A stretch of 64,000 bases of DNA from Flavobacteriales bacterium (GCA_038321615.1 JBBQFC010000004.1:12768-76767), one strand, 5' to 3'; shown: positions 72 to 32,676, numbered from the stretch's first letter. Numbers and translations: made by a program. The notes: a model not told the origin generated them from the sequence alone.

Positions 72-2756
<2,685 letters not shown>

Positions 2757-2763
<7 letters not shown>

Positions 2764-7744: not shown

Positions 7745-7750
7745 AGCAGG

Positions 7751-8161: not shown

Positions 8162-8165
8162 CTAT

Positions 8166-8173
8166 CAAATGTA
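8166..8173 (-). promoter_or_regulatory. -7 promoter box TAcaTTTG, 4 nt upstream of the thioesterase ATG
   Basis: Minus strand reads TACATTTG-ATAG-ATG. Confidence 0.4.
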
Positions 8174-8704
8174 GAGATAGAAATGGGGAAATTTCAGAAT
8201 ATCCGATCAGTTGATACCTGGCTATAGAAATATCAATTTCGAACATCTACAAATCTGATCAAGATGCTTAGAAGCCGCTTAGTTTTTCTCGGGCATCATC
8301 ATTTCCCACAAATAAACCCTAACTTACCTGCCGCTGCGGGCAAACGAGTCAAAGGCAAAAACAGATAATCTTAGAAAGCTATTGTGATTGTAAAGTTGGT
8401 GTGCTTAATACCCTTACTGTCTAATCATTTAACAATAACTATCTCGCTACTTACTCCAATAGTTTGGACAAAATTATGCTACCCCTTTTACGAAAATTTT
8501 AGCATAAAAATCAATGTTGACGAGCAAAAGAGAAGGATTAAAAAAAGTTTACGGTACTGTAAAACTTTTATTGCAAACAATAGGTAAGGGGCTTTTTTTT
8601 TCACTTTTTTGTCGGAATATTTGCCACCCCGCTCAAGCATCGATGCATGGGTAACGCTATGCGGGAAAAGGTCCATTTATTAACCTAAACTACACTACCA
8701 ACCA

Positions 8705-13069: not shown

Positions 13070-15154
13070 CTAATAATTCCCAGATCGCTTGCGGATAAAC
13101 CACTCAGCGCTCAATCCCAAGATGAGCAAAACAAGTGGCCAAAAAAGGTTGAGCATGCTCGACAGCTTTTCGGTGCTAAAGCTTACAGGTTGTATCCGAT
13201 CGGATGCAGCAATGGCTTCAGCCATTTCGTCTATTTCACTGGGATAATATAGCTCGCCGCCTGTAGATTGTGATAGGGTGTATAGTAATTGATGGTCGGC
13301 ACGAAGCCGGGCTGCTTCAATAGCAAAGGGCCTGATCGTAAAACTGCCGCCATCGGAGAGTGGCCGGCCATCGCGATTAGTGCGGGCCGCAAAGGTGTAG
13401 GTGCCCACCGGAAGCATTCCAGCGTCGAGGCGATAAGCAGTTTCGGTGCGGGAAAAGTTGAAATTATACGTCTTATCTTCTTCATCGGTAAAATCTACAG
13501 TCACCTCGGCGTCGTTGACCGGCGAATATGCTGCATCGTACAACTCGGCGCTGAGTACTATGCGTTCGTTTTGCATAAGGTCGCGCGGAGCTTGCACTCG
13601 AAAAAGCCTTTTATCTTGCTTGAGAGAGAGGTATTGAATGATCTGCCCGATGAACCCATCGAAAATCTCATGGTTTTCATTTCTGGCAAAGTCCGCCAAT
13701 CGCCAACGCCAAATGCCCTCCCCTAGCAAGGTCGCATTTTTCCGGTCGTCGTAGGTCGTGAAAACCAAAAGTGGGTCGTCGGTAGCTATTTTGCCGACCT
13801 GTTGCTTTAGGAAAATGCTGGCACTGCCGGGCAATCGCCATGTGCCGAAAGGCACGCGCAGTGGCGGTGCATCTGCCAATAGCTCACTAATTCGGTCATT
13901 GGGTTGAAACAGCGTGAACGATTTATTCAATCCAGCTTTGACATCATTCACAGCATTTCTGCTTCCAGCCAGCGAAATACCGATACCTATCTCGGTCAAC
14001 CCGCGCAAATCGGAGTCGGCGCCGATGATCTCAAAAATAGGTTTTTTGGCTTGTACTATTGCAAGGCGGATTGCTCGATCATCGCTTAGTGAAGGTAATT
14101 GATGGAGCACCACCAGGTCATACTCCGACAAATTCGGAACCCCGTCGGCAGCGAAATGCACGGCTACTTCGTAATTTTCGTTACCCCCGATGGCGCTGCG
14201 TATAGCGAATACATCGGGGTGCGGAGCAGCAGAAAGAATTAGAACCTTTTGCCGGCTGTCAATAACATCAATAAATACCAGGCTCACATTATTGGCTAGG
14301 GTTTGTTCGCCCGAAACACTATTTAACCGCAGGGTATAGCGTTGCACGCCAGGCTTGTCGGCTTTGAGCAAGAAGCGGACTACCTTCTCATCGTCGGCAT
14401 TGCTGGGGGTGAATGTCCCTCGCTCCAGCACTTGGCCGTCTTTCTCGATTTGATAGTTCAGATTTTCACCTCGGAGTTCTATCCCACGAAACACAGCTTC
14501 TACAGGAAATGTATTCCCCAAAAAGGCGATTCGGTTAGCAGCCACTTCACTGATTAAGGCATCGCGGCGGGGAGTAGTATCGCCCAATGCTATGCTGTAA
14601 ATCGGCGCACCTAAACCTCCTGTGTCATATCGCGGATTGCTCCCGCGATTGTAAATTCCATCGCTCATCAATACCACGGCACCTAGATTTCGGTTGGTAT
14701 ATCTGGCCTTCAGCGACTCCATGAGCTCCGAAATATTCGTCACTTCGTCTTTGAAATCAGCCCCTATTCCTTCGCGCACGGAAGCTCCGAAACTATACGG
14801 CACTACTTCGTACTTCTCCCCGACCTTACTATTCAGCGCATCGGCGGTGCGCTGCACCAAAGCTGCTACCTCAGCCGAGTCGCTATTGAGCGTAAGAGAA
14901 GACGATTGATCGACCGCCAGGACAATTACGGGTGGTTCGATCTCCGTATTCACTTTTCGCAGTAGCGGGCCCAGAAGCAGAAAAACGAGTAGCGCGACTA
15001 CTGTAAAACGCAGTGCTGCTAAGCTAAAAAGAGTTGTTCGGGACCACGACTTCCCTTTGGAATTTTGGAAATAGAGCAAAGCCCCAAAGGCCAAGCCAAC
15101 CAAGGGGCAAAAAATAACGAACCATGTGGGGTATTCTAAGAGCAGATTTTTCAC
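13070..15154 (-). CDS. vWA-domain membrane protein (BatA-like N-terminal double-TM region)
   Basis: Two N-terminal TM helices, MIDAS motif VLAVDQSSSL (DxSxS), C-terminal TM anchor. Start is 2 nt after the fabG stop. Confidence 0.6.
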   Translation of the reverse strand: MKNLLLEYPTWFVIFCPLVGLAFGALLYFQNSKGKSWSRTTLFSLAALRFTVVALLVFLLLGPLLRKVNTEIEPPVIVLAVDQSSSLTLNSDSAEVAALVQRTADALNSKVGEKYEVVPYSFGASVREGIGADFKDEVTNISELMESLKARYTNRNLGAVVLMSDGIYNRGSNPRYDTGGLGAPIYSIALGDTTPRRDALISEVAANRIAFLGNTFPVEAVFRGIELRGENLNYQIEKDGQVLERGTFTPSNADDEKVVRFLLKADKPGVQRYTLRLNSVSGEQTLANNVSLVFIDVIDSRQKVLILSAAPHPDVFAIRSAIGGNENYEVAVHFAADGVPNLSEYDLVVLHQLPSLSDDRAIRLAIVQAKKPIFEIIGADSDLRGLTEIGIGISLAGSRNAVNDVKAGLNKSFTLFQPNDRISELLADAPPLRVPFGTWRLPGSASIFLKQQVGKIATDDPLLVFTTYDDRKNATLLGEGIWRWRLADFARNENHEIFDGFIGQIIQYLSLKQDKRLFRVQAPRDLMQNERIVLSAELYDAAYSPVNDAEVTVDFTDEEDKTYNFNFSRTETAYRLDAGMLPVGTYTFAARTNRDGRPLSDGGSFTIRPFAIEAARLRADHQLLYTLSQSTGGELYYPSEIDEMAEAIAASDRIQPVSFSTEKLSSMLNLFWPLVLLILGLSAEWFIRKRSGNY

Positions 15155-15156: not shown

Positions 15157-15903
15157 TTAGGTGAGCATACCCCCATCTACATTAATGGTCTGACCGGTGA
15201 TGTACGCGCTCATATCCGACGCGAGAAATAAACAAAGATTGGCTACATCGTCGGGAGTTCCTCCACGCCTTAGCGGAATGGCTTCTCGCCATTCCTGAAC
15301 GGTTTTCTCATCGAGCGCTCCAGTCATTTCGGTTTCGATAAAGCCTGGTGCTACCGCATTACAGCGTATGTTTCGAGAGCCCAGCTCCAAAGCCACCGAC
15401 TTGGTAAAGCCCAGAATACCTGCCTTCGAAGCTGCATAGTTGGCTTGGCCAGCATTGCCCTTTACTCCTACCACCGAACTCATGTTGATTATGGATCCTG
15501 AACGCGCTTTGAGCATCGGTTTGAGCACGGCCTTGGTAAGATTGAAAACCGATTTAAGGTTTACGGCCATCACTTCATCCCATTGTGCTTCGCTCATGCG
15601 CATTAACAAGGTGTCGCGCGTAATTCCCGCATTGTTGACGAGTATATCGATGGTGCCGTATTCCGCTATTACTTGATCTACAAAGCCTTGGGCAGCATTA
15701 AAATCGCCGGCGTCGCTCTTGTAACCTTTGGACTTTCCCCCTGAAGTGCTCAATTCGGCTTCGAGTGAACGGGCTTTTTCGTCGGAGCTCATATAGGTGA
15801 AACAAACAGTTGCGCCGTGATTGACAAAATGCTGGGCTATGGCTTTCCCGATACCGCGAGAAGCTCCGGTAATAATGGCTACTTTGTTTTCGAGTAGTTT
15901 CAT
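15157..15903 (-). CDS. fabG: 3-oxoacyl-[ACP] reductase FabG (SDR family)
   Basis: Cofactor motif ITGASRGIGKAIA, NNAG, and catalytic S...YAASKAG. 248 aa. Confidence 0.9.
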   Translation of the reverse strand: MKLLENKVAIITGASRGIGKAIAQHFVNHGATVCFTYMSSDEKARSLEAELSTSGGKSKGYKSDAGDFNAAQGFVDQVIAEYGTIDILVNNAGITRDTLLMRMSEAQWDEVMAVNLKSVFNLTKAVLKPMLKARSGSIINMSSVVGVKGNAGQANYAASKAGILGFTKSVALELGSRNIRCNAVAPGFIETEMTGALDEKTVQEWREAIPLRRGGTPDDVANLCLFLASDMSAYITGQTINVDGGMLT

Positions 15904-16928: not shown

Positions 16929-17405
16929 CTAATTTAAATTTAGTTCCGCAGGCCAGTTGATAGTGTCTTCATCGCTGAAATAAGGTCCCCATTGCACTTC
17001 CGTAATGGCGCCGCCTTCAAGCCAAATGAGCATTTCAAATTCTTCGGCTTCCACAATTTCTAGGCTCTCTTCGCCCGATTCTACCACTTCGGTATGAATT
17101 TCGGAAGCGCCGTGTTTTTTGAGAATATCGAGCAATTCTTCTCTGTTCAAAGCCTTGATGAGCACGCCGAACAATTCGATTTCGTCATCGGCCGAAACAA
17201 TCGTGGTTAACCGCCATTCTTCCAACTCATCGAATGTGAGCGATAGGTCGAGCTCGTCGTAATGCCAATATTCCAAATCTTCCGACTCTTCGTCGCGTTC
17301 GATCTCATCGGGCTCACCGAGTGCAGCGCGCACCTGAAAGCGGTTCATGCCAAATCGCAAAGAACCAAATCCTTCGCCGGGTAAAATATGTTTCATGTTT
17401 TCCAT
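16929..17405 (-). CDS. Hypothetical strongly acidic cytoplasmic protein
   Basis: 158 aa, Glu/Asp-rich, no signal peptide. 13-nt overlap with the upstream ORF. Confidence 0.5.
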   Translation of the reverse strand: MENMKHILPGEGFGSLRFGMNRFQVRAALGEPDEIERDEESEDLEYWHYDELDLSLTFDELEEWRLTTIVSADDEIELFGVLIKALNREELLDILKKHGASEIHTEVVESGEESLEIVEAEEFEMLIWLEGGAITEVQWGPYFSDEDTINWPAELNLN

Positions 17406-17857
17406 TTTCTTGTTTTGTTATCTAAGACCACCCCCGGCGCCAACAATGCTTCGCGCATCGCTGTCATCAAAGCACATTGATCCACCTGCCATAAAGTTGA
17501 CGGCCTGACGTACCGGATGTTTTGGGTGCCGCAAGAGCGACTCTGATAGATTCTATAAAAATCTTGACTTGGCATAGCCCAGCGCGGATGTCGAGCCATT
17601 GCAGATGAACATGCAGTAGCGTATGCGCCGAGTAGGTCTATGCTAGTTAGAGATTGTGGGCCTGTGCGAAGCATCACTGACTCTTCGGTTCCAATTTCAC
17701 CTTGCATCTCTGCGGCATACCGATCTATGTCTGGTTGCCACATTAAATATCTGGTATCTAAAGATTTGGCGAATAAAGAGAACCCTGCAAATACGGCAAT
17801 CAGCACGAATGCTGTTCGAAGACTTGGATGCTTTAATGCTGAAAAAAGGAAGGGCAT
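17393..17857 (-). CDS. Hypothetical N-terminally membrane-anchored protein
   Basis: 154 aa with hydrophobic segment AFVLIAVFAGFSLFA. A TAaaTTTG box lies 19 nt upstream. Confidence 0.45.
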   Translation of the reverse strand: MPFLFSALKHPSLRTAFVLIAVFAGFSLFAKSLDTRYLMWQPDIDRYAAEMQGEIGTEESVMLRTGPQSLTSIDLLGAYATACSSAMARHPRWAMPSQDFYRIYQSRSCGTQNIRYVRPSTLWQVDQCALMTAMREALLAPGVVLDNKTRKWKT

Positions 17858-17952: not shown

Positions 17953-17990
17953 AGGAAAACGGTCGCATAGCTCCGACCGTTTTCCTTTTA
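17953..17990 (+). terminator. Strong intrinsic-terminator-like hairpin with no annotated upstream plus-strand gene
   Basis: 13-bp perfect stem AGGAAAACGGTCG/CGACCGTTTTCCT with an 8-nt loop. The stem runs into TTTTATT. Confidence 0.5.
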
Positions 17991-18173: not shown

Positions 18174-18950
18174 GTGGAAGTGACAGCGAGTTTAGCCCCT
18201 ATTATCGAAGTTATCGAGCAAGCCTATGAAATACCCCAATTGGGGCGACGCCGAAGAATCTCTGCCCTCCTACCCCACGATTATTATACCAGCGGAAAGA
18301 CCTATCCGGTACTTTACCTCAACGATGGTCAAAATCTTTTTGATGAGCATGCACCATTTGGAAACTGGGCTATAGATAAAGGCCTGGAGCGCTTGGCTTT
18401 CGAAGGCCACGCCAACCTTATAGTCATTGCCATTGATCATGGAGGTATCGATCGAATCACGGAGTATATGCCTTATTTCAATGCCCGTTTTGGCAAAGCC
18501 CAAGGTAAATTATATCTCCGTTTCCTGGAAGAAACGCTCATTCCGTATGTCAACAAGAAGTATCGAACCATAGCGAAGAGCGAAGCCACTGGCATTGGTG
18601 GAAGCTCCATGGGCGGACTTATAAGTCTATATGCTGGTCTGAATCACCAGCGGACATTTGGTAAAACGCTCATTTTTTCCCCAAGTCTCTGGATCGCTCC
18701 TAAAATTTTTCAACAAGCGGAAAACTTCCGGCCCGATATGCCTATGCGTATGTATATCTATGCTGGAGGCAAAGAAAGCGCGAACCACATGGCCAATGTA
18801 TTGCGCTTCAAGCACACCCTACTTAGCGGTTATAAAAACTTGACCAATATGCAGGTACACGTAGCATTAAACCCAGAAGGTACCCATAGCGAAGGTTTTT
18901 GGCGCGATGAGTTCCCAACGGCAGTAAAATGGTTATATTTCCAGTTTTAG
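18174..18950 (+). CDS. Alpha/beta hydrolase, 'putative esterase' (esterase D / IroE-like) family
   Basis: Nucleophile elbow GIGGSSMGG, family-typical YPVLYLNDGQNLF, late His (EGTHSEGFW). GTG start. Confidence 0.75.
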   Translation: MEVTASLAPIIEVIEQAYEIPQLGRRRRISALLPHDYYTSGKTYPVLYLNDGQNLFDEHAPFGNWAIDKGLERLAFEGHANLIVIAIDHGGIDRITEYMPYFNARFGKAQGKLYLRFLEETLIPYVNKKYRTIAKSEATGIGGSSMGGLISLYAGLNHQRTFGKTLIFSPSLWIAPKIFQQAENFRPDMPMRMYIYAGGKESANHMANVLRFKHTLLSGYKNLTNMQVHVALNPEGTHSEGFWRDEFPTAVKWLYFQF

Positions 18951-18967
18951 CTTATTTCCCCACTACT

Positions 18968-20359
18968 ATGGACGTTCAAATAGCCGACAAAAAGGCAACT
19001 TCTGAATTCACGATTAAACCTTTCATCGCAGATAGCAAGGAAGCTCAAGGACAAGAACTTCCGAACATCGGCGAATGGCTCATCGAACGCGAAGGAAAAA
19101 CCGCCACGCTTCACTTCGGAGTAGATTCCACCTGGTCAGAGCAGAAAATGGCGGAGCAGTTTCGCTTACTTGCCCAAAAAACAGAAAAATACTGGGGCGC
19201 GAAACCACATCTAGATTTAAGTAAAGTAGATGCTTACGCCTTACCAATTATTCGCGGGCTAAACATGAACGGTTATACCCAGGCGATGCTTAAGCCTCAG
19301 AAAACAAAACTCAAAACCACTTTATCTCTTGTTGGTAAAGTCGATGCAAAACTATTGGCGGAAGCCAAAGCCGAAGCAGAAGTGCAGCTTTGGGCCATGA
19401 CACTGGTAGATCTGCCACCTGAGCGCAAAACTCCGGAAATAATTGCGGCGAAAACCCGTGAAATGGCCAAGAAATATGGCTTGCAATGCGAGGTGTGGAA
19501 TAAAGATCACATAGTGAAAGCGGGTATGAACGCCCTTTATGCCGTAGGTCGGGGCAGTGTTAATCCGCCTGTATTAATCATTTTGCATTATAAAGGAAAG
19601 CCCGACTCAGAACAAACCGACGTTGTATTTGTAGGCAAGGGTATAACCTTCGACACGGGTGGTATATCGATTAAGCCTTCCGATAACCTTCATTACATGA
19701 AGAGCGATATGGCCGGAGCGGCGGCTGCACTCGGGGCAGTGCAGCTAGCGGCGAGGCTGAAACTCCCCATCAACGTTTCGGCTGTGGTACCATCAGCCGA
19801 AAATAGTGTTGGCGCAAATGCGCTGTTGCCCGGCGAAGTAATCAAATCTTATTCGGGGAAGACCATTGAAATCATCAACACCGATGCAGAAGGCCGCCTG
19901 GTGCTTGCCGACGCTATTGCTTGGGTTAAAAAAACGATTGATCCAGCAGTGATGATCGACTTGGCCACACTCACCGGAAGTGCGGTAAGAGCATTGGGTT
20001 ACGAAGCCGCCGCGCTATACAGTGATAATGAAAAATTAAGGAATCTACTTTATGATTGCGGCCAAGAAACCGGCGAAAAGCTCTGGCCTATGCCGCTTTG
20101 GAAAGACTACGATTATTACCTCCATAGCGACGTGGCCGACGTGGCTAATCTACCATCGACCCCTCTGGCAGGAACTATTGCTGCCGCTAAATTCTTACAG
20201 GTTTTTACAGATAAGCATAGCGCTTGGGCACATATTGATATGCCGGGGGTTGCTTTTCGCGACAGCCCCTTCTTTAAGACCAAATCGGCCACCGGTTATG
20301 GTGTACAATTATTGGGTTGTTTCATAAAAAAACTAGCAGCAAAATCTCATAAATTCTAA
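18968..20359 (+). CDS. pepA: Leucyl aminopeptidase (M17 family)
   Basis: M17 signatures VGKGITFDTGGISIKP and NTDAEGRLVLAD. Start placed at ATG 18968 (MDVQIADKK). Confidence 0.9.
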   Translation: MDVQIADKKATSEFTIKPFIADSKEAQGQELPNIGEWLIEREGKTATLHFGVDSTWSEQKMAEQFRLLAQKTEKYWGAKPHLDLSKVDAYALPIIRGLNMNGYTQAMLKPQKTKLKTTLSLVGKVDAKLLAEAKAEAEVQLWAMTLVDLPPERKTPEIIAAKTREMAKKYGLQCEVWNKDHIVKAGMNALYAVGRGSVNPPVLIILHYKGKPDSEQTDVVFVGKGITFDTGGISIKPSDNLHYMKSDMAGAAAALGAVQLAARLKLPINVSAVVPSAENSVGANALLPGEVIKSYSGKTIEIINTDAEGRLVLADAIAWVKKTIDPAVMIDLATLTGSAVRALGYEAAALYSDNEKLRNLLYDCGQETGEKLWPMPLWKDYDYYLHSDVADVANLPSTPLAGTIAAAKFLQVFTDKHSAWAHIDMPGVAFRDSPFFKTKSATGYGVQLLGCFIKKLAAKSHKF

Positions 20360-20367
20360 GCATTCTC

Positions 20368-21579
20368 ATGGCCGATAAATTAAAATTTCTCTGTGTTTCT
20401 TCATATTTTAAAGGAGAAGCCTTTCTCGAAGCCTGCGCAGAAGCAGGCAATGAAGTGTACTTAATCACGTCGAGCAAATTGCAAAACGAAGCTTGGCCGT
20501 GGCATGCCATTACCGAGGTGTTCTACATGGAAGAAGATGAAAATCGAAAGTGGAATCAGCAGCATTTGGTAAATGCTATTGCTTTCCAGATGCGCGAAAA
20601 ATTCTTCGATCGCTTCATAGCACTCGACGATTTTGACGTCGAAAAAGTGGCCGCCCTGCGCGAACAGTTTAGAACTCCGGGAATGGGCGATTCCACTTCG
20701 CGTTTTTTTCGCGATAAGCTGGCTATGCGTGTAAAAGCTCAAGGCGAGGGCATTCCCGTTCCGGCGTTTACCCCACTTTTCAACGATTCGCACATCAAGC
20801 GGTTTATCGATGAAGTACCTGGCCCATGGATGATCAAACCTCGTTCTGAGGCATCGGCGGTAGGAATTAAGAAAGTTGCAGACGAGGCTACGCTTTGGGG
20901 TGTAATAGAGCAACTCGGCGACAATCGACACCGCTTTGTGCTCGAGCGATTCAGCCCGGGCACGGTGTATCACGCAGATGCGTTGACTTTTCAAGGCAAA
21001 GTAGTGTTCTGTCGGATCAGTCGATACCTCGATACCCCCTTCGAAGTGGCTCACGGTGGCGGTATCTTCCGCTCTCAGACACTCGAGAAAAATGATCCTG
21101 CAAACATCGCCCTAACAGCATTAAACGAGCGATTGCTCAAAGGTTTTGGGATGCAATACAGCGCCTCGCATACGGAGTTTATAGAAGACCGGGAAACGGG
21201 TGAGTTCCTCTTTCTCGAAACTTCTTCGCGTGTGGGCGGCGCCCATCTTGCCGAAATGGTCGAAGCGGCATCGGGTATCAATCTATGGGCCGAATGGGCT
21301 AAACTGGAAACGGCAATCGTAAGAAACACGGGTTACAAAGTCCCAAAGGACAGTGGTAAACAGGCTGGTATTGTGGTGTCTTTGAGCCGGTACGAACACC
21401 CCGATGACAGTCAATTTACGGAACCCGAAATAGTGTGGCGTATGAAGAAAAGTTGGCACATCGGTTTAATAGTTCGTGCGGCTAAAGCAAATAAGGTTTT
21501 AGAATTGCTCAATAGTCTCACCAACCGTATTCACTCCGATTACCACGGTAGCGCACCTGCACCCGATCGCTCGCCCTGA
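20368..21579 (+). CDS. ATP-grasp domain carboxylate-amine ligase, substrate unknown
   Basis: ATP-grasp strands WMIKPRSEASAVGIKKV and FVLERFSPG. Metal/ATP site HTEFIEDRETGEFLFLETSSRVGGAHL. Only a 9-nt gap after pepA. Confidence 0.7.
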   Translation: MADKLKFLCVSSYFKGEAFLEACAEAGNEVYLITSSKLQNEAWPWHAITEVFYMEEDENRKWNQQHLVNAIAFQMREKFFDRFIALDDFDVEKVAALREQFRTPGMGDSTSRFFRDKLAMRVKAQGEGIPVPAFTPLFNDSHIKRFIDEVPGPWMIKPRSEASAVGIKKVADEATLWGVIEQLGDNRHRFVLERFSPGTVYHADALTFQGKVVFCRISRYLDTPFEVAHGGGIFRSQTLEKNDPANIALTALNERLLKGFGMQYSASHTEFIEDRETGEFLFLETSSRVGGAHLAEMVEAASGINLWAEWAKLETAIVRNTGYKVPKDSGKQAGIVVSLSRYEHPDDSQFTEPEIVWRMKKSWHIGLIVRAAKANKVLELLNSLTNRIHSDYHGSAPAPDRSP

Positions 21580-21632
21580 CTGATGCGTTAGCGTTTGGGA
21601 GTGAAGAAGGAAGTGGGATTTGCAAGATTTAG

Positions 21633-22829
21633 CTAAACCGGAAATAAGGCAACGCTCGCCCCGACCCAATCCTTGTCCTTATTATATTTTACGCCGATCA
21701 TCTCGCCTTTTGATACGCGCACAAGGTTATTGATCACTTTGGGGCGAGCTTCATGCTCTTCCCATACCATCATCATGCGGACTTCAAATTTTGCAGGTCC
21801 GGTAGGTGTTTCAACGATCGGCGCATAGCTGACTTTTCGCTGAAGCAAATACTGATCGGGATGCTTCACTGCCATTATGTCGGCCATAGTAGGATGAAGA
21901 TTCACTCCGCTTCCCGCAAAAGAAAAGAGGGGTTTGAGCACCCAATTTTCAAGATCTGATGGATATTCAGTTAACTCACTGAGATAATAGCACTCTGGCA
22001 CATACTTGCTTCGCAACAGCGGCAGGGTATATTTGCTAATCCGGTAAAACCAATTGGGATGACCCACCCACTCTGCATCCACGTCATCGGTAAAAGAAAA
22101 CTCCCTGTTCAGATCACTATGTTGCTGCAGTTCGTCAAATATAATACGGTTGTAAATGCGCTTTACATCTACTTGGTTTCCATCCATGTCCACATAGTAA
22201 AGTCGGCGTCCGGATTTCTTCAGCTTGCTCAAGCAAAGCACTTTTATACCGAGTAAAGCAGAAGTTACTACAAAGTCGATGTACGTGTTTTGGGTTTCCG
22301 GCTCAATTTCGAGCATCACTACTTCTTTCGGGTCACAATTGCCAACAATAATGCGGCGCATTGTTTCGCGATAAGAATCCTTGTTAATTCCGCCGAAATA
22401 AGACTGATAACGTTCATCGATCTCATGGGCGTGTCGAAAGCCATCGGTGAGTAAATCTTGGAAGAAATACAAACTTGGAAAACCTTGGAGTTCGATAAGC
22501 TGGGGAATAATATTACCGCTTTCGTCCGCGCATATCCCAAAATCCATTTGGATAAATCGGCTTTTGCTGTCTTCGCGCGGCACGATCAGATCGGGCGTGC
22601 CAAACGCGCGCTGGGTCAACTTCAAGAAATCGGGTCGTACGAGCACATCGCTAATCTGCTCGCATGCTTCGAGTAATTTATCCTTCAGCTCCTGATCCAA
22701 GAATATCGGCGTTTCGCAGAGGCGAAAAGTAGGCCCAATTCCATAGGTTCCGTTTACATACTCCATAAATGCCGCATACCTTTCTGGCGTAAAATTGGCA
22801 TTAAATGCAGTTCGGACTTCTGGAATCAT
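21633..22829 (-). CDS. Glutathionylspermidine-synthase-like (YgiC/YjfC-type) amidoligase, substrate unknown
   Basis: IPQLIELQGFPSLY resembles the LLExNADTPTSLY pre-ATP-grasp motif. VLKPLFSFAGSGVNL resembles VVKPIFSREGANVSI of YgiC. The 398-aa size matches the family. By-eye similarity only. Confidence 0.5.
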   Translation of the reverse strand: MIPEVRTAFNANFTPERYAAFMEYVNGTYGIGPTFRLCETPIFLDQELKDKLLEACEQISDVLVRPDFLKLTQRAFGTPDLIVPREDSKSRFIQMDFGICADESGNIIPQLIELQGFPSLYFFQDLLTDGFRHAHEIDERYQSYFGGINKDSYRETMRRIIVGNCDPKEVVMLEIEPETQNTYIDFVVTSALLGIKVLCLSKLKKSGRRLYYVDMDGNQVDVKRIYNRIIFDELQQHSDLNREFSFTDDVDAEWVGHPNWFYRISKYTLPLLRSKYVPECYYLSELTEYPSDLENWVLKPLFSFAGSGVNLHPTMADIMAVKHPDQYLLQRKVSYAPIVETPTGPAKFEVRMMMVWEEHEARPKVINNLVRVSKGEMIGVKYNKDKDWVGASVALFPV

Positions 22830-22840
22830 TTCGATTTGAA

Positions 22841-23671
22841 TTAGGCGTATTCCATTCGCATATGCTTCATGGCAGTGCGCAGGAATGACGGAATTACCAT
22901 GTGATGAGTCCGTGCAATATGCTCTGGGTGCTCCAAGCTTTTCATCATAGCATTGTACTTGCGCACGCTGTGATTTTTGATTACCACTTCCCGGTTTTCT
23001 TCCTTTTCGAAATGCACGTACATCCCTTTTGGATCTGCCTCGGGGTGGTACTGCGTTCCTACCATATACGGCGAAAACCGCACCGCCATAATGGCCCGCT
23101 CCATTTGAACGTGGGTACGAATTTTCTCCAGAGATAAAATGGAAGCACCGCGCTTTTTAAATACGCTTAACTTGGGTTGTACCAATTGCCAATCGCGGCT
23201 ATCCACAATGTAATAAGGATCGTCGAGTCCAGCCAACATTGGATCGTCGGCGCCAGCCTTTGTTTTATGGCAGGGATAGATACCGAAGGATGGCACGCTG
23301 CGCAGGTTTACATCGCCTAGCCCAAAGTGGTTGCAAACCATCTGAAAAGAGTGACAGATGAAGAAGACGTGCTTTTTGTGTGGGGCTTCGGAAGCATTGT
23401 GCTTCCATACTGAGTCCACCCAATTGTACCATGCTACATCCCATTTGCCATCGCCCTCCAGCGGATTGCCAGGACCGCCTGATGAAATGTAGAGATCGAA
23501 ACTCAGATCGGGAAGCTCACATTTGCCGCGCACATCAAACTCCTGATACTCGATTTCATTGGCAAAATCGCCTAAAATCTCTTTTATAGCGCGGATTCCC
23601 TGATTGGAAATCCCTTCATACATGTTAAGCAGAGCCAACCTAAAAGGCCGCTTCAAATCATTGACCATCAC
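22841..23671 (-). CDS. Class-I glutamine amidotransferase-like / peptidase C26-like hydrolase
   Basis: Nucleophile Cys in VFFICHSFQ and His-Glu in GTQYHPE, so the Cys-His-Glu triad is intact. No synthase domain is fused. Confidence 0.65.
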   Translation of the reverse strand: MMVNDLKRPFRLALLNMYEGISNQGIRAIKEILGDFANEIEYQEFDVRGKCELPDLSFDLYISSGGPGNPLEGDGKWDVAWYNWVDSVWKHNASEAPHKKHVFFICHSFQMVCNHFGLGDVNLRSVPSFGIYPCHKTKAGADDPMLAGLDDPYYIVDSRDWQLVQPKLSVFKKRGASILSLEKIRTHVQMERAIMAVRFSPYMVGTQYHPEADPKGMYVHFEKEENREVVIKNHSVRKYNAMMKSLEHPEHIARTHHMVIPSFLRTAMKHMRMEYA

Positions 23672-23702
23672 TTCCTTTTCTCTAATGCGAACGCAGGCTC
23701 GC

Positions 23703-25811
23703 TTATTTCTTCTTTGGGCCTTTGGGCATTGCTCGTTTTACTTCAACCTTTTCGGCTGAAGTACCTACCGCAGGCGTTTTTTCCTTTTTGATCGAAGACT
23801 TACGAGCCGCTTTGGCCATAGTTGGGGCCGCGGTGGGCGTAGCTTTCACGCTTAAAGCCGACTTTGGTTTAACAGGGGCATTTGAACTGGTAGAAGCTGC
23901 TTTAGCCGGTTCAGTAGATTTTTTCGGACTGGTTGGTTTCGTAGGCATTGTACGCTTCATGCCTTGTGCCCTTAGCACTGCTGCTTTTGGAGCTGCGGAT
24001 TTCGGCGTATCAGTCTTTACGGCTTTCGCTCCAACGGATTTTGGTGCTTTCGACAGCACAGCTATGGGCGCTTTTGGTGCTACCGATTTAACCACTTTTG
24101 GTGCACTAGATTTAGTTTCTGGTTTGGCTTCAACGGTTGCTTCAGGCACCTTGGCTTCACTCACTTTTGCGACAGTATTTAGGCGGGGCTTAGGCCCACG
24201 CTTTCCTTTCACTTTGGTAACAGTGGCTCCTTCGGCCTTTACACGCGGCTTGAGTCCACGCTTTCCTTTTGCCGTTGCGGTAATTGCTCCGTCGACCTTA
24301 ACACGTGGTTTCGGACCTGGTTTGGCTTTTACTTTAGGCGTAATATCTCCTTCGGCCTTAGTACGCGGCTTAGGCCCACGCTTTGCTTTCACTTTGGGTG
24401 CAGTGGCTCCTTCGGCCTTAATACGCGGCTTCGGCCCTCGCTTTCCTTTTACTTTAGGTGCAGCGTCTCCTTCTGCCTTCATACGTGGCTTCGGCCCTGG
24501 CTTTCCTTTTACTTTGGGTGTAGTGTCTCCATCTGCCTTCATACGCGGCTTTGGCCCTGGCTTTCCTTTTACTTTGGGTGCAGTGTCTCCTTCGGCCTTC
24601 ATACGTGGCTTCGGCCCTGGCTTTCCTTTCACTTTAGGCGTAACGTCTCCTTCGGCCTTGGCTCGCGGCTTTGGCCCTGGCTTTCCTTTCACTTTGGTAA
24701 TTGCGGCTCCTTCGGCATTAACATTAACGCGTGGCTTAGGCCCGGGCTTCCCTTTTACTTTGGGCGTAGCGTCCGCTTCGGCCTTAGCTTTTGGCTTCGG
24801 TCCTGGTTTGCCTTTTACTGCTACCGATGTCCTTGAAGAAGGGCTGTTAGCTACAGATGTCGGCTTTGACGTGCCAAATTGATTTGCGACAAACGTTCCC
24901 CAGGTGAGGTTCATCTGTCCGTCTTTGTGGGTTTTGGCTCGCGCTATGGCCATATCAGCAGCATGCTCCACCACCCATTCGAAATTCTCCTGACCCACAC
25001 TATTCACATCGGCATCAGGCGCGGGATTGCAGAAATCGATGGCATAAGGCACCCCATCGCGCACGGCAAATTCTACGGTATTAAAATCATAACCGAGCGC
25101 TTCATTCAATTTAATCACGCCTTTTCGTACTTTTTCCAACATCGCCGAAGCTACTGGAGGCGCATTGTGTACATAGCGTAAATGGTGCGGATTGCGTGGC
25201 TCGTATTGCATAATGCGCACATCGTTTCCGCCCAAGCAATAGCATCGGAAATACTCGGTAAACTGAATTTCTTCCTGAAGCATCATTACCAACTGTCCGG
25301 TTTCCGAATGGCGGGCAAATAGTTCATTGGCATTCTCGAGCCTATAAACGCTCTTCCAACCACCACCAGAGTGCGGCTTCATATAGGCAGGAAAGCCTAT
25401 ATATTTAAATATACTTTCCCAGTCCATAGGGAATTTCAGATTGCGAAACGAATTATGGTCGGTATCTGCCGGGCGCTCATGCGATGGGAGAATGACTGTT
25501 TTCGGAACGTCCACACCAACATGCATCGCGAGGGCATTATTGAAGAATTTTTCATCGGAACTCCACCAAAACGGATTGTTCAAAACGGCTGTACCTCCAA
25601 TGGCTGCATTTTTTAAATATGCCCGGTAGAAGGGTACGTCTTGCGATATGCGGTCTATTATTACGGCATAATCGGTAGGCTTTGCCTGCTGCACCATTTC
25701 GATAGAAACAGCTTCGGCTTTGATGCCTTTCTCGGCTTTTTGATTTACACGCTCAATAAAGGCCTGGGGAAAGGTATTTTCCTGGCCGTAAAGGATTCCG
25801 ATTTTCTTCAT
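23703..25811 (-). CDS. RimK/glutathione-synthase-type ATP-grasp ligase fused to a Lys/Pro-rich tandem-repeat and histone-H1-like tail
   Basis: The N-terminal ~310 aa form an ATP-grasp domain (FPAYMKPHSGGGWKSVYR; NTVEFAVRDGVPYAIDFCNPAPD). Then come 11 x ~20-aa repeats KVKGKPGPKPRxKAEGDxxP and a 159-aa A/K/P/S/T-rich tail. Start moved to ATG 25811 (MKKIGILYG), which removes the overlap with the upstream esterase. Confidence 0.75.
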   Translation of the reverse strand: MKKIGILYGQENTFPQAFIERVNQKAEKGIKAEAVSIEMVQQAKPTDYAVIIDRISQDVPFYRAYLKNAAIGGTAVLNNPFWWSSDEKFFNNALAMHVGVDVPKTVILPSHERPADTDHNSFRNLKFPMDWESIFKYIGFPAYMKPHSGGGWKSVYRLENANELFARHSETGQLVMMLQEEIQFTEYFRCYCLGGNDVRIMQYEPRNPHHLRYVHNAPPVASAMLEKVRKGVIKLNEALGYDFNTVEFAVRDGVPYAIDFCNPAPDADVNSVGQENFEWVVEHAADMAIARAKTHKDGQMNLTWGTFVANQFGTSKPTSVANSPSSRTSVAVKGKPGPKPKAKAEADATPKVKGKPGPKPRVNVNAEGAAITKVKGKPGPKPRAKAEGDVTPKVKGKPGPKPRMKAEGDTAPKVKGKPGPKPRMKADGDTTPKVKGKPGPKPRMKAEGDAAPKVKGKRGPKPRIKAEGATAPKVKAKRGPKPRTKAEGDITPKVKAKPGPKPRVKVDGAITATAKGKRGLKPRVKAEGATVTKVKGKRGPKPRLNTVAKVSEAKVPEATVEAKPETKSSAPKVVKSVAPKAPIAVLSKAPKSVGAKAVKTDTPKSAAPKAAVLRAQGMKRTMPTKPTSPKKSTEPAKAASTSSNAPVKPKSALSVKATPTAAPTMAKAARKSSIKKEKTPAVGTSAEKVEVKRAMPKGPKKK
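24183..24815 (-). repeat. Coding tandem repeat, 60-bp period, about 10.5 copies (one 66-bp copy)
   Basis: Units are visible in register with the 60-nt sequence lines from 24181 to 24720. Central copies (24421..24660) differ at only about 5 of 60 positions. Confidence 0.95.
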
Positions 25812-25851
25812 TTTTTGGTTTTTTTGGGTTGGTGCAATTTGGTGGTGCAAT

Positions 25852-26562
25852 TTAAATTTTAGAAAGGTAATCTGGAAACATCGTTCGCCACAACGGCCAA
25901 TCATGTTCTGCCCAGCGACGTTCATCCATCCATACGTTCATATTCTTTTCCTGAAGAAGCCCACCCAATTTAAGGTTGGCATCTTTACAGATATCCCATT
26001 CGCCATAGCCGAGTATTACTTTAAGCTTCCACAATTCGGGATTTTGATCGCCCTTTATGTAATCTATCGGATTGTTGAAATAAACGTTATCATCGTAGTA
26101 ACCATCTACAAAAGAGCGAATATCGAAAGCGCCACTCATGCTGATTAAATGGCTCACCATTTCGGGGTGCTTGAAGGCAAAATTGGCCGCATGGAATCCA
26201 CCAAAACTGGCGCCAGCTACCACGACCTTATTGATGCCGTAGCTTTCGCGAATAGCGCCTACAACTTCTTCGGCAATAAACTTATCATACCACATGTGGT
26301 TTTTAACGCGCTCGGCTGGATGAATTTTCTTGTTATACCAGCTGTATTTATCTATGCTGTCGGGGCAATAAATCTTAAACCGCCCTTCATTTAGCAAATT
26401 GGCAGCAGAGTCGATCAATTTGAAATCTTTACTTTCAAAATGCCGACCCATAGTGGTCGGAAAAATGATAACCGGAGTGCCGTAATGACCATAAACCAAC
26501 ATTTCGAACTCCTTGCCAAGGGTGGGCGAATTCCACTTAATGTGTTCTTCTTTTACCTGCAT
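25852..26562 (-). CDS. Alpha/beta hydrolase, 'putative esterase' family
   Basis: Nucleophile elbow VAGASFGGFHA. 236 aa. First gene of the minus-strand operon. Confidence 0.7.
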   Translation of the reverse strand: MQVKEEHIKWNSPTLGKEFEMLVYGHYGTPVIIFPTTMGRHFESKDFKLIDSAANLLNEGRFKIYCPDSIDKYSWYNKKIHPAERVKNHMWYDKFIAEEVVGAIRESYGINKVVVAGASFGGFHAANFAFKHPEMVSHLISMSGAFDIRSFVDGYYDDNVYFNNPIDYIKGDQNPELWKLKVILGYGEWDICKDANLKLGGLLQEKNMNVWMDERRWAEHDWPLWRTMFPDYLSKI

Positions 26563-26594: not shown

Positions 26595-26602
26595 CAAAGT
26601 TA
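26595..26602 (-). promoter_or_regulatory. -7 promoter box TAacTTTG, 32 nt upstream of the esterase ATG 26562
   Basis: Plus strand reads CAAAGTTA. It is the only exact box I saw in this divergent intergenic region. Confidence 0.4.
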
Positions 26603-26917: not shown

Positions 26918-27232
26918 ATGCATGGTATTGAGAGAACGTTCAAGTTTGAGAACGGTGAGAAGATTAAAGGCAAGTTCAAAATCGTCGCTATTGCCAAAAA
27001 GCGAAAGAGCAAGAAAAAGTGGCGGCCTGTTGTCTGGAAAGGGACTATCAACGACAAAGAAATTAAAATCGTGCAACTCTCTGCGGAGCCTGCTGCCATA
27101 GAAGATTTCGACTGGAAGGAATTCCCAAAAAAATATGAAGTGGTGAAAGCCTACATCGCCGATGCCATCGAAGAGTATTTTACAGAAACCGATCCCGTTG
27201 TCTTTGCAAAAAGTTTAAAAACCAAGCATTAA
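26918..27232 (+). CDS. Small hypothetical protein, Lys-rich centre and acidic C-terminus
   Basis: 104-aa ORF in an otherwise empty 350-bp+ region. No recognisable motif. Confidence 0.35.
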   Translation: MHGIERTFKFENGEKIKGKFKIVAIAKKRKSKKKWRPVVWKGTINDKEIKIVQLSAEPAAIEDFDWKEFPKKYEVVKAYIADAIEEYFTETDPVVFAKSLKTKH

Positions 27233-27235: not shown

Positions 27236-29062
27236 TTATTCCGCTTTTTCTTTAGCATGTACCTTTATCGCTTGATTGTAAGCCTTTTGGTAATTCTCAA
27301 TCAATACATTCCAATCGAAGTTTTCCGAAAAGTCTTCTAATCTATTTCGCTGAATCATTCGGTAACGTCGGTTTGACTTGACGAAGTGAAGCATATAGCG
27401 ACCGAGGTCTTCCACCGCTTTTTTCTCGGGTTGCTTCTTGCGCTGAAGCACATAGATTCCCCGCTCCTCATGATCGGCTTCCATACTCTCTACATAGCTT
27501 CCAAAACCCGAAAGGTCGGATGTAATAGCCGGAACGCCACGTGCTACGCACTCCAGCGGAGTGTAACCCCAAGGCTCATAATAACTCGGAAAAATACCAA
27601 GGTGGCAACCCCGCACAAACTGTCCATAGTCGAGTCCGAAGAGCGGGTTGGTAGATTCAATAAAATCGGGATGATATACCAATTTAACCCGATCTAGGGG
27701 AGAATTAACCATTTGGTTACCCCGCATGTAATTGAGAATTTCGTCTTCAATATCATTCACTAAATTATGGGTGATAATTATTGGCCACGACTTCGTTTTC
27801 CACGACTGGATAGTCCTCCGGTAGCGCAGCTTCCAATAGTCGTCGATCAATTCGTTCAAGTTGGGCAATTTATGCTCCTCACTGCTGCCGGTGGCTGCAT
27901 AAAAAAGGCGCTCACCAAGTTGCTTTTCGATGGCTTCGCAATTGCGCTTAATCTCTTGCATTACCCCGCGCGATTCGAGCACGTCGGGATTTATACTCCA
28001 AGTGGGTTTCTTGGTTATGAAAAACATTACCACCGTTTTCTTGATCCCTTCTTTAACCATTTGTGCATTCAGCCATTTGAGAGCTTCGAGGGTTATGTCA
28101 TAGCCCTTATTGCGGAACTCGTAACGACCAGAAGTAAAAAAGTAGAGGGTATTATCAAGGTCGAAATTGTACGAGCTAAAGAAATGTCCAATTACGAATT
28201 CGTGAATCTTGTCTTTGTATAATTGATGGCGGTTATGCACCTCGTGATAAGCCACGTAGCGGGTAATGTTCAAGCCATTTGGAGTAATAAGATGGGGTTT
28301 TACACCTAAAAGATGCTCGCATTCCAATCCGGTAACGTCGCTCACCGTGGTGAAACAATCTGTGGAATGCGCTGCACCTCGCTCGATCTGAACCTGGGGT
28401 AGAATCCCAAATTTCCGGGACTCAACCTGCCAATCGAAGTTGGGAAGTTTCTTGTAAAATCCAGGATCATTGCCCGCCAGATACCTACCAAGCATAGTAG
28501 CGTGGGTGGTAAAAACAGTTGAAATCGGTAATCCTTCGCGCTTGATATCCAAAATGGGAAGGGCGGACATCCACTCATGGAAGTGGGCAACGATGGGGCG
28601 GGTATTTCGGACTACTTCTTTGGAGAGTATGGTGAAGAAGGTGCGATTGAGGTCTGCCCACATCATCATTTTTTCCAGAAGCGAATCTTCCTTGTTCGTA
28701 TTTATGCCGAGATCGAGATTGAGGTGTCGGTGGAGGGTATCAATTCTATTGAAAACATTTTGAGGGTTCAACAGCACCACGCGCGGGCGGCCTGTAACCA
28801 GCCATCGACCGTACCACGCCTCGTAACCCATAGCGCGCATTTTATCGACGGTGCGGCCAATGGGATCCGTAGCATTTTGAATCGGTTCAAACTCAGCGCT
28901 GATGTCTTCTGTTTCCAGCGGGCCAAGGAGGCAATAATCATCACCCCAAAGATCGATAGCGGCGGGCACTTTCGAACGAATTACGGTATAGATACCTCCC
29001 ACTTGGTTGCATACTTCCCAAGCGCATTCTATTATTAATGGATTCTTTTTGGTAGTGCTCAT
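27236..29062 (-). CDS. Glycogen synthase, eukaryote-like GT3 family
   Basis: N-terminus ECAWEVCNQVGGIYTVIRSK matches the GT3 glycogen synthase signature (EVANKVGGIYTV in yeast/animal enzymes). 608 aa. Confidence 0.8.
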   Translation of the reverse strand: MSTTKKNPLIIECAWEVCNQVGGIYTVIRSKVPAAIDLWGDDYCLLGPLETEDISAEFEPIQNATDPIGRTVDKMRAMGYEAWYGRWLVTGRPRVVLLNPQNVFNRIDTLHRHLNLDLGINTNKEDSLLEKMMMWADLNRTFFTILSKEVVRNTRPIVAHFHEWMSALPILDIKREGLPISTVFTTHATMLGRYLAGNDPGFYKKLPNFDWQVESRKFGILPQVQIERGAAHSTDCFTTVSDVTGLECEHLLGVKPHLITPNGLNITRYVAYHEVHNRHQLYKDKIHEFVIGHFFSSYNFDLDNTLYFFTSGRYEFRNKGYDITLEALKWLNAQMVKEGIKKTVVMFFITKKPTWSINPDVLESRGVMQEIKRNCEAIEKQLGERLFYAATGSSEEHKLPNLNELIDDYWKLRYRRTIQSWKTKSWPIIITHNLVNDIEDEILNYMRGNQMVNSPLDRVKLVYHPDFIESTNPLFGLDYGQFVRGCHLGIFPSYYEPWGYTPLECVARGVPAITSDLSGFGSYVESMEADHEERGIYVLQRKKQPEKKAVEDLGRYMLHFVKSNRRYRMIQRNRLEDFSENFDWNVLIENYQKAYNQAIKVHAKEKAE

Positions 29063-31725: not shown

Positions 31726-32676
31726 ATGGATGATGAAAAGTCGGGAGTAAATCTCGCGTATGCCAAGGAGCTGCTAGATAGCGGGCAAATAATTGGGATT
31801 CCCACGGAGACAGTTTACGGACTCGCTGCCAATGGATTTGATCCAGATGCTATCATCCGGATATTCGACGCAAAGAAACGTCCGTATTTCGACCCGCTTA
31901 TTTTACACATTGGCCAAGCGGATCAATTGCAATTAGTTGCCAAAAAAGTACCGCAAGATGCGCTCAAACTAGCGCAGCGTTTTTGGCCGGGGCCACTCAC
32001 TATAATCTTAGAGAAGTCCGATCGCATTCCCGATCTGGTTTCTTCCGGACTCCCAACAGTGGGGATTCGAATACCTAGACATCCCATCACCTTAGACTTA
32101 CTCGGCATGCTCGATTACCCCCTTGCCGCTCCAAGTGCCAACCCCTTTGGGTACATCAGCCCCACAAGTGCAGGGCACGTATTGCGGCAATTAGGCGACT
32201 TGATTCCCTACGTTATTGACGGCGGAATGTGCTCCGTGGGTGTAGAATCGACTATTGTAGATCTCAGTGGCGACCAACCGGTAATGCGTCGGCTCGGTGC
32301 CGTAACAAACCAAAGTATTAGTGAGGCATTAGGCAAACCTGTACTCGAAGATTTCCGTGGGGGAAGCAACCCAGCTGCCCCGGGTTTGCTTGCCGGCCAC
32401 TATGCCCCTCGCAAACCGCTGTATTTTGGCGACATCGAAGCTCTCCTTGACCAATTTGGCACTCAGAAAGTCGCAGTATTGGGCTATACGCAAACTTACG
32501 GTTACCCGGGTATTGCCTTAAGCCCTGGCGGAAGCATCAACGAAGCCGCCCGCAATTTATTTGCTGCAATGCGTAAACTCGACGAAAGCAACTACGAAAT
32601 CATTTTGGCTGAAACCATGCCGCATAAAGGAATAGGAAGAGCCATGAATGATCGGCTCCAACGGGCTTCCCGCTAG
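31726..32676 (+). CDS. tsaC: L-threonylcarbamoyladenylate synthase (Sua5/TsaC type, with Sua5 C-terminal domain)
   Basis: YrdC-domain motifs IGIPTETVYGLAANGFD and SANPFGYISPT. 316 aa. Confidence 0.9.
   Translation: MDDEKSGVNLAYAKELLDSGQIIGIPTETVYGLAANGFDPDAIIRIFDAKKRPYFDPLILHIGQADQLQLVAKKVPQDALKLAQRFWPGPLTIILEKSDRIPDLVSSGLPTVGIRIPRHPITLDLLGMLDYPLAAPSANPFGYISPTSAGHVLRQLGDLIPYVIDGGMCSVGVESTIVDLSGDQPVMRRLGAVTNQSISEALGKPVLEDFRGGSNPAAPGLLAGHYAPRKPLYFGDIEALLDQFGTQKVAVLGYTQTYGYPGIALSPGGSINEAARNLFAAMRKLDESNYEIILAETMPHKGIGRAMNDRLQRASR

Follow-up and report, generated by a model that had tools for sequence, protein, structure and literature searches.

The window analysed here, a stretch of 64,000 nucleotides (nt) from a Flavobacteriales bacterium (GCA_038321615.1, JBBQFC010000004.1:12768-76767; positions are counted from its first letter), contains between positions 18174 and 26562 a cluster of seven genes coding for three predicted amide ligases, a class-I glutamine amidotransferase-like protein, an M17 aminopeptidase and two esterases. 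The cluster is best explained as a variant of a gene set vertically conserved in aerobic Bacteroidota. The probable role of this set is to produce, and to recycle, a small peptide of non-ribosomal origin or a polymer of amino acids. All seven open reading frames (ORFs) lie where the initial annotation had placed them, in two convergent operon-like modules.

The plus-strand module is headed by the esterase Est1 (18174-18950; GTG start, the gene called from an independent assembly beginning 6 nt later), followed by the M17 aminopeptidase (18968-20359) and by LAL, an ATP-grasp protein resembling L-amino-acid ligases (20368-21579). The minus-strand module begins with a second esterase, Est2 (25852-26562), and continues with AG (23703-25811), which consists of a classical RimK/GshB/Ddl-like ATP-grasp core (24861-25811) and a Lys/Ala/Pro-rich C-terminal tail of 385 amino acids (aa; 23703-24860). 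It ends with GAT, the amidotransferase-like protein (22841-23671), and, directly downstream of it, cpAG (21633-22829), a circularly permuted ATP-grasp that is the anchor gene of the cluster. The AG reading frame stays open to position 25925, and its start was set at 25811, where the MKKIGIL that begins its homologues is encoded. Genes are tightly packed: on the minus strand 11 nt (cpAG-GAT), 31 nt (GAT-AG) and 40 nt (AG-Est2) lie between them, within the range previously given, and on the plus strand 17 nt (Est1-M17) and 8 nt (M17-LAL), the latter having been given as 9 nt; 53 nt separate LAL from cpAG. The same seven genes are present in two independent SRA assemblies, both of which break inside the AG repeat.

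A TAnnTTTG match (the -7 motif of Bacteroidota), TAACTTTG, lies at 26595-26602 on the minus strand, 32 nt before the ATG of Est2, with a TTTG another 21 nt upstream. This box, already noticed in the initial annotation, matches the consensus and is a candidate Bacteroidota promoter for the minus-strand module. A scan for sigma-70 promoters and terminators gave counts no higher than expected from shuffled sequence, an outcome to be expected in Bacteroidota. About 185 nt upstream of Est1, a strong GC-rich hairpin is followed by a run of T (17953-17990; GGAAAACGGTCG...CGACCGTTTTCCTTTT). It is not listed by the simple terminator scan, and looks like an intrinsic terminator that may shield the plus-strand module from upstream transcription.

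We scanned one genome per species and confirmed 574 loci, of which the best 80 were retained; the 45 loci flanked on either side by 8 kb or more form a long-flank set. The loci span four classes (Flavobacteriia, Saprospiria, Chitinophagia and Cytophagia), and carriers include Flavobacteriaceae (Gelidibacter, Polaribacter, Winogradskyella, Flaviramulus, Subsaxibacter), Cryomorphaceae, to which the nearest relatives belong, Saprospiraceae, Lewinellaceae, Chitinophaga, Sediminibacterium, Spirosoma and Hymenobacter. When the window proteins were used as tblastn queries, cpAG was accompanied by GAT in 70 of 82 loci, by AG in 54, by Est2 in 31, by LAL in 30 and by M17 in 24; the corresponding figures in the long-flank set are 38 of 45 for GAT, 30 for AG, 20 for LAL and 17 for M17. 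Chance cannot account for an arrangement that is seen again in dozens of genomes. The initial annotation had named a lack of synteny and an assignment of each ligase to a characterised pathway enzyme as grounds for its refutation; homologues are strongly syntenic across Bacteroidota, and in profile and PDB searches no ligase could be assigned to such an enzyme.

Comparison of the loci also revealed a gene that the window lacks. A 365-aa family is encoded between AG and GAT in 28 loci and corresponds to a GCS2/YbdK carboxylate-amine ligase (PF04107, 8e-64; YbdK, PDB 1r8g, 4e-63). No tblastn match to it was found in the 64-kb window, and it is equally absent from many Saprospiraceae loci. From these gene orders, the canonical cluster is taken to be Est2-AG-GCS2-GAT-cpAG convergent with LAL-M17-Est1, that is, eight genes with four predicted amide ligases. 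All eight occur in 13 of the 45 long-flank loci, and also in Fulvivirga sedimenti, while exactly the set of the window occurs in three. Smaller subsets exist, from cpAG alone or cpAG with GAT to combinations that add GCS2 and then AG. The LAL-M17-Est1 module remains linked, at no more than 10 kb, despite inversions (L011, L013, L017, L048, L057) and inserted genes (L004, L015, L021, L024, L029). Such persistence argues for a functional rather than a purely historical link between the two modules.

Just seven families, the GCS2/YbdK ligase being one of them, recur widely upon unsupervised clustering of the ORFs of these loci, and the genes flanking the cluster are not conserved. Glycogen genes adjoin it in about 6 of 83 loci. 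In the window, a eukaryotic-type GT3 glycogen synthase (27236-29062, minus strand; PF05693, 4e-191) lies just upstream of Est2, as it does in the nearest relative (L003), and in several Saprospiraceae loci (L017, L053, L054, L061) GlgC and a GT5 GlgA adjoin LAL. That two lineages have glycogen genes next to the cluster, and non-homologous ones, may reflect a link to storage metabolism, or may be a coincidence. The Sua5 gene of the window (31726-32676) also recurs beside the cluster, in Aureispira and Chitinophagales loci (family f27; L016, L034).

The anchor protein cpAG is a single-domain protein of 398 aa without any Pfam or NCBIfam match above threshold. Sequence searches of PDB with cpAG and AG gave nothing useful, so that structure prediction was needed. 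The AlphaFold2 (AF2) model of cpAG has a predicted local distance difference test (pLDDT) score of 91.6, and all 21 Foldseek matches to PDB structures with E of 1e-3 or lower are permuted ATP-grasps: 3n6x is at the top (5.6e-14), and the matches, among them 1m0w, 8fbz, 7uk8 and 2io7, include the glutathione synthetases of yeast, human and plants as well as YgiC and GspS of E. coli. On the basis of this model, cpAG is predicted to have the topology of a circularly permuted ATP-grasp, and residues E349, R351, N367, N368 and R371 are invariant. The GspS/YgiC-like label of the initial annotation is thereby supported at the level of the fold; it does not extend to membership of the GSP_synth family (PF03738), to which the window protein gives E 0.049 and 13.3 bits against a threshold of 29.3, and which is matched weakly by 24 of 50 cpAG family members (best 7.4e-5). 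Matches to CP_ATPgrasp_1 and CP_ATPgrasp_2 are likewise below threshold. There is no fused N-terminal CHAP amidase domain in cpAG, and the neighbouring hydrolase is a separate GATase1-fold protein. The family is large, with at least 7998 homologues, the best 120 of which show 55-63% identity, apart from one that is nearly identical.

GAT adjoins cpAG in 70 of 82 loci. The median distance between the two genes is 10 nt, and several pairs overlap by 4 nt. In one locus (L070) the two appear fused, which is probably a frameshift in the metagenome-assembled sequence and was not used. The initial annotation was right to see a GATase1-like protein with a Cys-His-Glu triad (C106, H209 and E211 are invariant), the oxyanion motif being SSGGPG, the nucleophile lying in FICHSFQ and the His-Glu pair in QYHPE. 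Its further assignment to C26-type gamma-glutamyl hydrolases finds no support: none of 32 family members matches Peptidase_C26 (PF07722) at E of 0.1 or lower, whereas all 32 match PF00117 (best 3e-10), the window protein marginally so (23.4 bits against a cut-off of 22.8). In addition, 12 of the 32 match the HTS/MetA acyltransferase family. GAT can be considered a class-I glutamine amidotransferase (GATase)-like protein, whose sequence could equally fit a hydrolase or an ammonia donor.

The core of AG was modelled with a pLDDT of 78.8, and its Foldseek matches are Ddl, PsnB, ArgX/LysX and RimK, with template modelling (TM) scores of about 0.6 (0.6-0.7) and E values of about 1e-12 to 1e-15. The model places it among the classical three-domain ATP-grasps, and K145, D259 and N262, along with many further positions, are invariant in 47 sequences, in agreement with the conserved Lys and the acidic-x-Asn Mg/ATP motif expected of this superfamily. 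No Pfam model scores above threshold on the core and PF08443 does not match; the sole NCBIfam match, to TIGR00768 (rimK_fam), reaches 3.6e-4 and 20 bits, well below the cut-off of 143.4, which leaves AG outside the RimK family proper. We also rejected membership of the R2K clade, all matches to R2K_2 and R2K_3 being sub-threshold. AG is very highly conserved: its closest homologues are 74-85% identical, and tblastn gives 60-78% identity for the classes that were sampled.

Among 1.84 billion representative proteins, a profile search retrieved 2008 relatives of AG, including full-length ones at 30-49% identity. The neighbourhoods of the distant relatives are mostly unrelated to the cluster and revealed no partner, which indicates that AG can work without the other ligases. 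AG nevertheless tends to travel with hydrolases. One locus of another lineage (L087, GCA_026417135.1, 9001-12650) encodes an AG relative of 30% identity and, after it, an M28 peptidase-PDZ protein and an alpha/beta-hydrolase, an independent pairing of a ligase with hydrolases; a deoxyhypusine/homospermidine-synthase-like gene lies 5 kb away.

The tail of AG, which the initial annotation had recognised as repetitive, is found by Tandem Repeats Finder (period 60, 9.9 copies, 76% matches, scores 480-642) and is also present in the two SRA assemblies. It includes 11 tandem units of 20 aa (KGKPGPKPRxKAEGDxxPKV, 60 nt each, at about 24150-24815) and has a net charge of about +78 (103 Lys and Arg against 25 Asp and Glu). 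Tail length varies among orthologues from none (many are tailless proteins of 312-340 aa) to the 385 aa of the window. Tails elsewhere are Lys/Ala/Pro-rich with weak histone-H1-like HC2 matches, and some end in a DDLKKIEGIGPKIE-type helix-hairpin-helix-like domain, in both cases below Pfam thresholds; such matches recur in independent lineages, five loci or more having them. On the strand opposite to the tail, a 386-aa ORF (23722-24882, plus strand) is a Gly/Phe/Pro-rich mirror of the Lys/Pro/Gly repeat, and we rejected it as a repeat artefact that should not be annotated as a gene.

The proteins of the plus-strand module are closer to known families. LAL aligns over 234 residues (86-319) with PDB 4wd3, an L-amino-acid ligase that we take to be RizA, at 3.9e-15; a second L-amino-acid ligase entry is matched at 6.8e-8, and the alignment with BacD is weaker than that with 4wd3. 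Its Gelidibacter orthologue matches ATP-grasp_4 at 5.5e-8, and LAL carries an ETSSR motif where E-x-N is usual. By sequence it classes as a homologue of characterised L-amino-acid ligases, that is, a predicted dipeptide ligase. The metallo-aminopeptidase, linked with LAL in 24 loci, belongs to peptidase family M17 (PF00883, 3.3e-111) and has the NTDAEGRL signature; NCBIfam leucyl aminopeptidase models reach 1e-109, yet remain under their equivalog cut-offs, and the M17_N domain was not detected in the window protein. Est1 and Est2 are both predicted cytoplasmic alpha/beta-hydrolases. Est1 is kept downstream of M17 in at least 20 loci and belongs to PF00756 (1e-25, 91.4 bits against a cut-off of 22), with a nucleophile elbow of the GxSxG type (GSSMG, in GGSSMGG) and CE1 ferulic acid esterases and IroE-like hydrolases as PDB relatives. 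Est2, which sits directly upstream of AG in 31 loci, is also a PF00756/Abhydrolase_1 protein (6.8e-10, 39.6 bits against the same cut-off), its elbow being GASFG, in GASFGG. Each module does therefore contain an esterase, as the initial annotation had stressed in describing their mirrored composition. However, Est1 and Est2 share no significant similarity (BLASTP E 0.1), so that a recent duplication can be rejected as the source of the mirroring, and the two represent distinct PF00756 subfamilies.

The number of cluster-linked hydrolases differs between lineages. In Fulvivirga sedimenti (L083), the complete set of eight genes has immediately upstream of it an AstE/AspA-type deacylase (2255-3211, minus strand; PF24827, 8e-26) as well as a third PF00756 esterase, and several Saprospiraceae loci have an additional divergent esterase.

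We also looked for partners that would place the cluster in a known type of pathway. No conserved ORF of 20-95 aa is present in the cluster or within 1.5 kb of it in 81 loci, and those small ORFs that do recur there are all antisense shadows of genes. We therefore reject a model based on a graspetide-like precursor of a ribosomally synthesised and post-translationally modified peptide (RiPP) or on a carrier protein, and consider LysW- or Pup-like carriers, like RiPP precursors, unlikely. Among the widely recurring families there is no transporter, regulator or tailoring enzyme, no rpsF gene is linked to the cluster in any locus, and no signal peptide is evident by eye at the N-terminus of the seven translated proteins. 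The window was said to lack a cphA-sized synthetase, and indeed neither a CphA-type ORF, combining ATP-grasp and Mur-ligase-type domains, nor any Mur-ligase-type domain was found in the cluster or the window. The lack of precursor, export and tailoring genes and of signal peptides points to a cytoplasmic product made from common metabolites and, together with the high conservation of AG, suggests a housekeeping role rather than one in secondary metabolism.

The general statement with the best support is that the cluster encodes a ribosome-independent amide-ligase system with paired hydrolases. The initial annotation had proposed that the genes make and turn over, independently of the ribosome, a peptide-like metabolite, a poly-amino acid or a protein tail; the broad idea is upheld by the synteny and by the lack of any known-pathway match, and nothing in the present data separates its three options. 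Our preferred model, to which we give a probability of about 0.4, is that a peptide of gamma-glutamyl type, or a conjugate, is assembled stepwise in the cytoplasm and turned over by hydrolysis. Gene presence, folds, catalytic motifs, synteny, modularity and the missing precursor and export genes are observed here, whereas the substrates, the order of steps and the product are inferred, as follows. Each ligase (GCS2/YbdK where present, AG, cpAG and LAL) would activate a carboxylate with ATP as an acyl-phosphate and join it to an amine. Acting together on common amino acids, and possibly on a polyamine, they would yield a small oligopeptide of gamma-glutamyl type or a peptide-amine conjugate. 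GAT would work directly with cpAG, either removing a gamma-glutamyl or amide group, much as the amidase half of GspS or plant gamma-glutamyl peptidases do, or supplying glutamine-derived ammonia. The M17 enzyme would trim the resulting di- or oligopeptides, and Est1 and Est2 may act on the product in the form of an ester, thioester or amide, which they would cleave. The absence of transporter, regulator, tailoring gene and conserved small ORF fits a product of this kind, which would derive from primary metabolites and stay inside the cell.

In favour of this model, the eight families line up with those of glutathione and glutathionylspermidine metabolism, for which we considered GshA, GshB or eukaryotic GSS, the GspS synthetase-amidase, the PepA/PepB Cys-Gly dipeptidase and esterase D. 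Some members of the GCS2 family are true gamma-Glu-Cys ligases, the permuted ATP-grasps include eukaryotic glutathione synthetase and GspS, Cys-Gly is cleaved by M17 enzymes and esterase D belongs to PF00756. The canonical cluster likewise combines a ligase of the glutamine-synthetase fold (GCS2), a classical ATP-grasp, a permuted ATP-grasp next to a Cys hydrolase, an M17 peptidase and PF00756 proteins. However, no cluster protein attains its family-specific thresholds, the hydrolase partner has a GATase1 fold rather than the CHAP domain of GspS, and the cluster adds LAL.

Other known systems resemble parts of the cluster. E. coli YgiC/YjfC and Mfla_0391 (PDB 3n6x) are, like cpAG, stand-alone permuted ATP-grasps (E 6e-14 to 7e-11, TM 0.5-0.6), but share about 14% identity with it and have a different neighbourhood. 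RimK, the poly-alpha-L-glutamate ligase of ribosomal protein S6, and LysX/ArgX have the same three-domain fold as AG; unlike them, the cluster is linked to no S6, LysW-type carrier or target, and AG has variable basic tails while RimK has none. LAL differs from the L-amino-acid ligases that it resembles (4wd3, BacD/YwfE) in being associated with an M17 peptidase and an esterase instead of antibiotic-pathway partners. The cyanophycin system pairs amino-acid polymerisation by an ATP-grasp with a GATase1-fold hydrolase and dipeptidases, a logic similar to that of the cluster, which however lacks the multi-domain CphA synthetase with its Mur-ligase-type domain and whose GAT nucleophile is a Cys, not a Ser. 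The operon principle of combining amide ligases with peptidases is the same as in multi-amidoligase neighbourhoods, in which ATP-grasp and COOH-NH2 (glutamine synthetase-like) ligases occur with peptidases and are predicted to make peptide metabolites or tags (as summarised in PMC4431377). No publication describing the cluster was found in the literature searched, the amidoligase survey of Iyer, Abhiman, Burroughs and Aravind (2009, Mol Biosyst 5:1636), which may mention it, lying outside that scope. The superfamilies and the operon logic are known.

Several observations weigh against the gamma-glutamyl model. None of the cluster's proteins has an assigned substrate, and YgiC, a close structural match of cpAG, has no GspS activity (Sui et al. 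2012, cited in PMC12506659) and no assigned substrate of its own (PMC12506659). The major bimane-labelled thiol of Polaribacter is N-methyl-bacillithiol (PMC6282198). As Polaribacter carries the cluster (L031, L039), the product is unlikely to be the main cellular thiol, and we have down-weighted the version of the glutathione analogy in which it would be the major low-molecular-weight thiol. A glutathione-like first step cannot be universal if GCS2 is missing from the window and from many Saprospiraceae loci, and the solitary occurrence of distant AG relatives means that AG may not share the product of the other ligases. Finally, a pathway to a small metabolite offers no explanation for AG tails that are polycationic or helix-hairpin-helix-like.

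Two other explanations give the tails a role. In one of them, which we consider unlikely, AG would polymerise an acidic amino acid in the manner of RimK or of the ATP-grasp domain of cyanophycin synthetase, possibly extending dipeptides made by LAL, to form a nitrogen or carbon reserve; the cationic tail would hold the anionic product, the alpha/beta-hydrolases would depolymerise it, and M17 and GAT would degrade its ends. AG is indeed nearest to RimK, LysX and Ddl-type ATP-grasps, one distant relative weakly matches the Pfam model of RimK, Est2 directly precedes AG in the 31 loci mentioned above, and the two lineages with glycogen genes beside the cluster would agree with a role in storage. 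The poly(aspartate) hydrolases PahZ1 and PahZ2 are, between them, of the alpha/beta-hydrolase and M28 peptidase types, the same two types that follow the AG relative of L087. Nevertheless, many orthologues are tailless, the Mur-ligase-type domain of CphA is missing, glycogen adjacency concerns few loci, cpAG, GAT and GCS2 are left without a role, and no such polymer is reported for Bacteroidota in the literature searched. In the other explanation, AG would be directed by its tail to the nucleoid or ribosome and add amino acids to a conserved protein, as RimK does, with the hydrolases reversing the modification. Its exceptional conservation is typical of enzymes that recognise a conserved macromolecule, its relatives are solitary in other genomes, as is RimK, and the histone-H1-like and helix-hairpin-helix-like tails would suit such a location. 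We regard this as quite unlikely: no candidate target gene is linked to the cluster, the RimK match falls far short of its cut-off, the tail matches all lie under Pfam thresholds, and both the tight cpAG-GAT-GCS2 linkage and the LAL module would go unexplained.

Two further alternatives concern how the genes relate to one another. GAT may be a glutaminase subunit, whose channelled ammonia would convert a carboxylate activated by cpAG (or GCS2) into a carboxamide, following the logic of CarA/CarB or MurT/GatD. The motifs SSGGPG, C-x-x-x-Q and QYHPE are those of amidotransferase-type class-I GATases, the split between PF00117 and Peptidase_C26 points the same way, the nearest NCBIfam models are GuaA/TrpG-like glutamine amidotransferases, and a position directly upstream of cpAG, at times with a 4-nt overlap, is typical of subunits made in a fixed ratio. 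We nonetheless hold it to be a possibility on the less likely side, given that all these matches are marginal, that HTS/MetA matches accompany them in a good part of the family, that the best PDB profile matches are 3l7n and MetA, and that we know of no permuted ATP-grasp with a GATase partner. It is also conceivable, but in our view improbable, that the two convergent modules are functionally unrelated neighbours, the island being an inherited gene order. The modules can be separated: of the 45 long-flank loci, 25 lack LAL-M17 and 10 have cpAG accompanied by GAT at most, and AG relatives occur alone. Against this, LAL-M17-Est1 stays linked to cpAG through inversions and insertions and across divergent classes, while flanking genes are not conserved.

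A broader synthesis, speculative and in our opinion rather unlikely to hold in full, would be that aerobic Bacteroidota contain an undetected cytoplasmic molecule derived from amino acids (a peptide-polyamine or gamma-glutamyl conjugate, or a short poly-amino acid), made by up to four unrelated amide ligases, with AG tethered by its tail to the nucleoid or ribosome and with the product or modification acting on nucleic-acid-associated targets, the whole forming a new, phylum-specific housekeeping system.

Bacteroidota are major players in the carbon turnover of marine, soil and wastewater settings, and this phylum-wide eight-gene cluster is annotated just as hypothetical or generic proteins, two of its families (cpAG and AG) having no Pfam model. 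With its product identified, bacterial physiology would gain a new primary metabolite, polymer or protein modification, functions could be given to thousands of database entries, and a stand-alone GspS/YgiC-like permuted ATP-grasp would have its first substrate. Should the product be an ordinary one, for instance that of redundant dipeptide salvage, the gain would mainly be better annotation.

The surroundings of the cluster in the window include some further genes. Directly upstream lie two overlapping minus-strand genes of 158 aa (16929-17405) and 154 aa (17393-17857) without Pfam match, a pair that recurs only in near-identical assemblies (L001) and is absent from other loci, which excludes it from the conserved cluster. 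Further upstream, a 694-aa minus-strand ORF (13070-15154) without a Pfam family at E of 1e-3 or lower adjoins a short-chain dehydrogenase/reductase (15157-15903); L080 is the one locus in which tblastn gives it a match near the cluster, a weak one (27%). On the other side, the 674-nt gap between Est2 and the glycogen synthase contains a 104-aa plus-strand ORF divergent from the cluster (26918-27232), with a basic product (MHGIERTFKFENGEKIKGKF...). Also in the window are two signalling proteins, a 681-aa SpoIIE/PP2C phosphatase near the cluster (29658-31703, plus strand) and a class III adenylate/guanylate cyclase containing TPR (58385-60412, minus strand). Several genes neighbouring the cluster carry type IX secretion sorting domains, in keeping with a host from the Bacteroidota. 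A 1084-aa secreted protein (35891-39145, minus strand) combines CotH kinase, lamin-tail, chitobiase C-terminal and Fn3-associated domains with a CHU_C type IX signal, and its neighbour (39204-40451) has lamin-tail domains and a Por_Secre_tail. Finally, dnaA is found at 8705-10135 on the plus strand, preceded by 960 nt without any ORF of at least 150 aa, in a 2-kb interval whose GC content (0.427) is among the lowest of the first half of the window. The region 7745-10135 is a plausible candidate for oriC, which would put the cluster about 10 kb from the replication origin.

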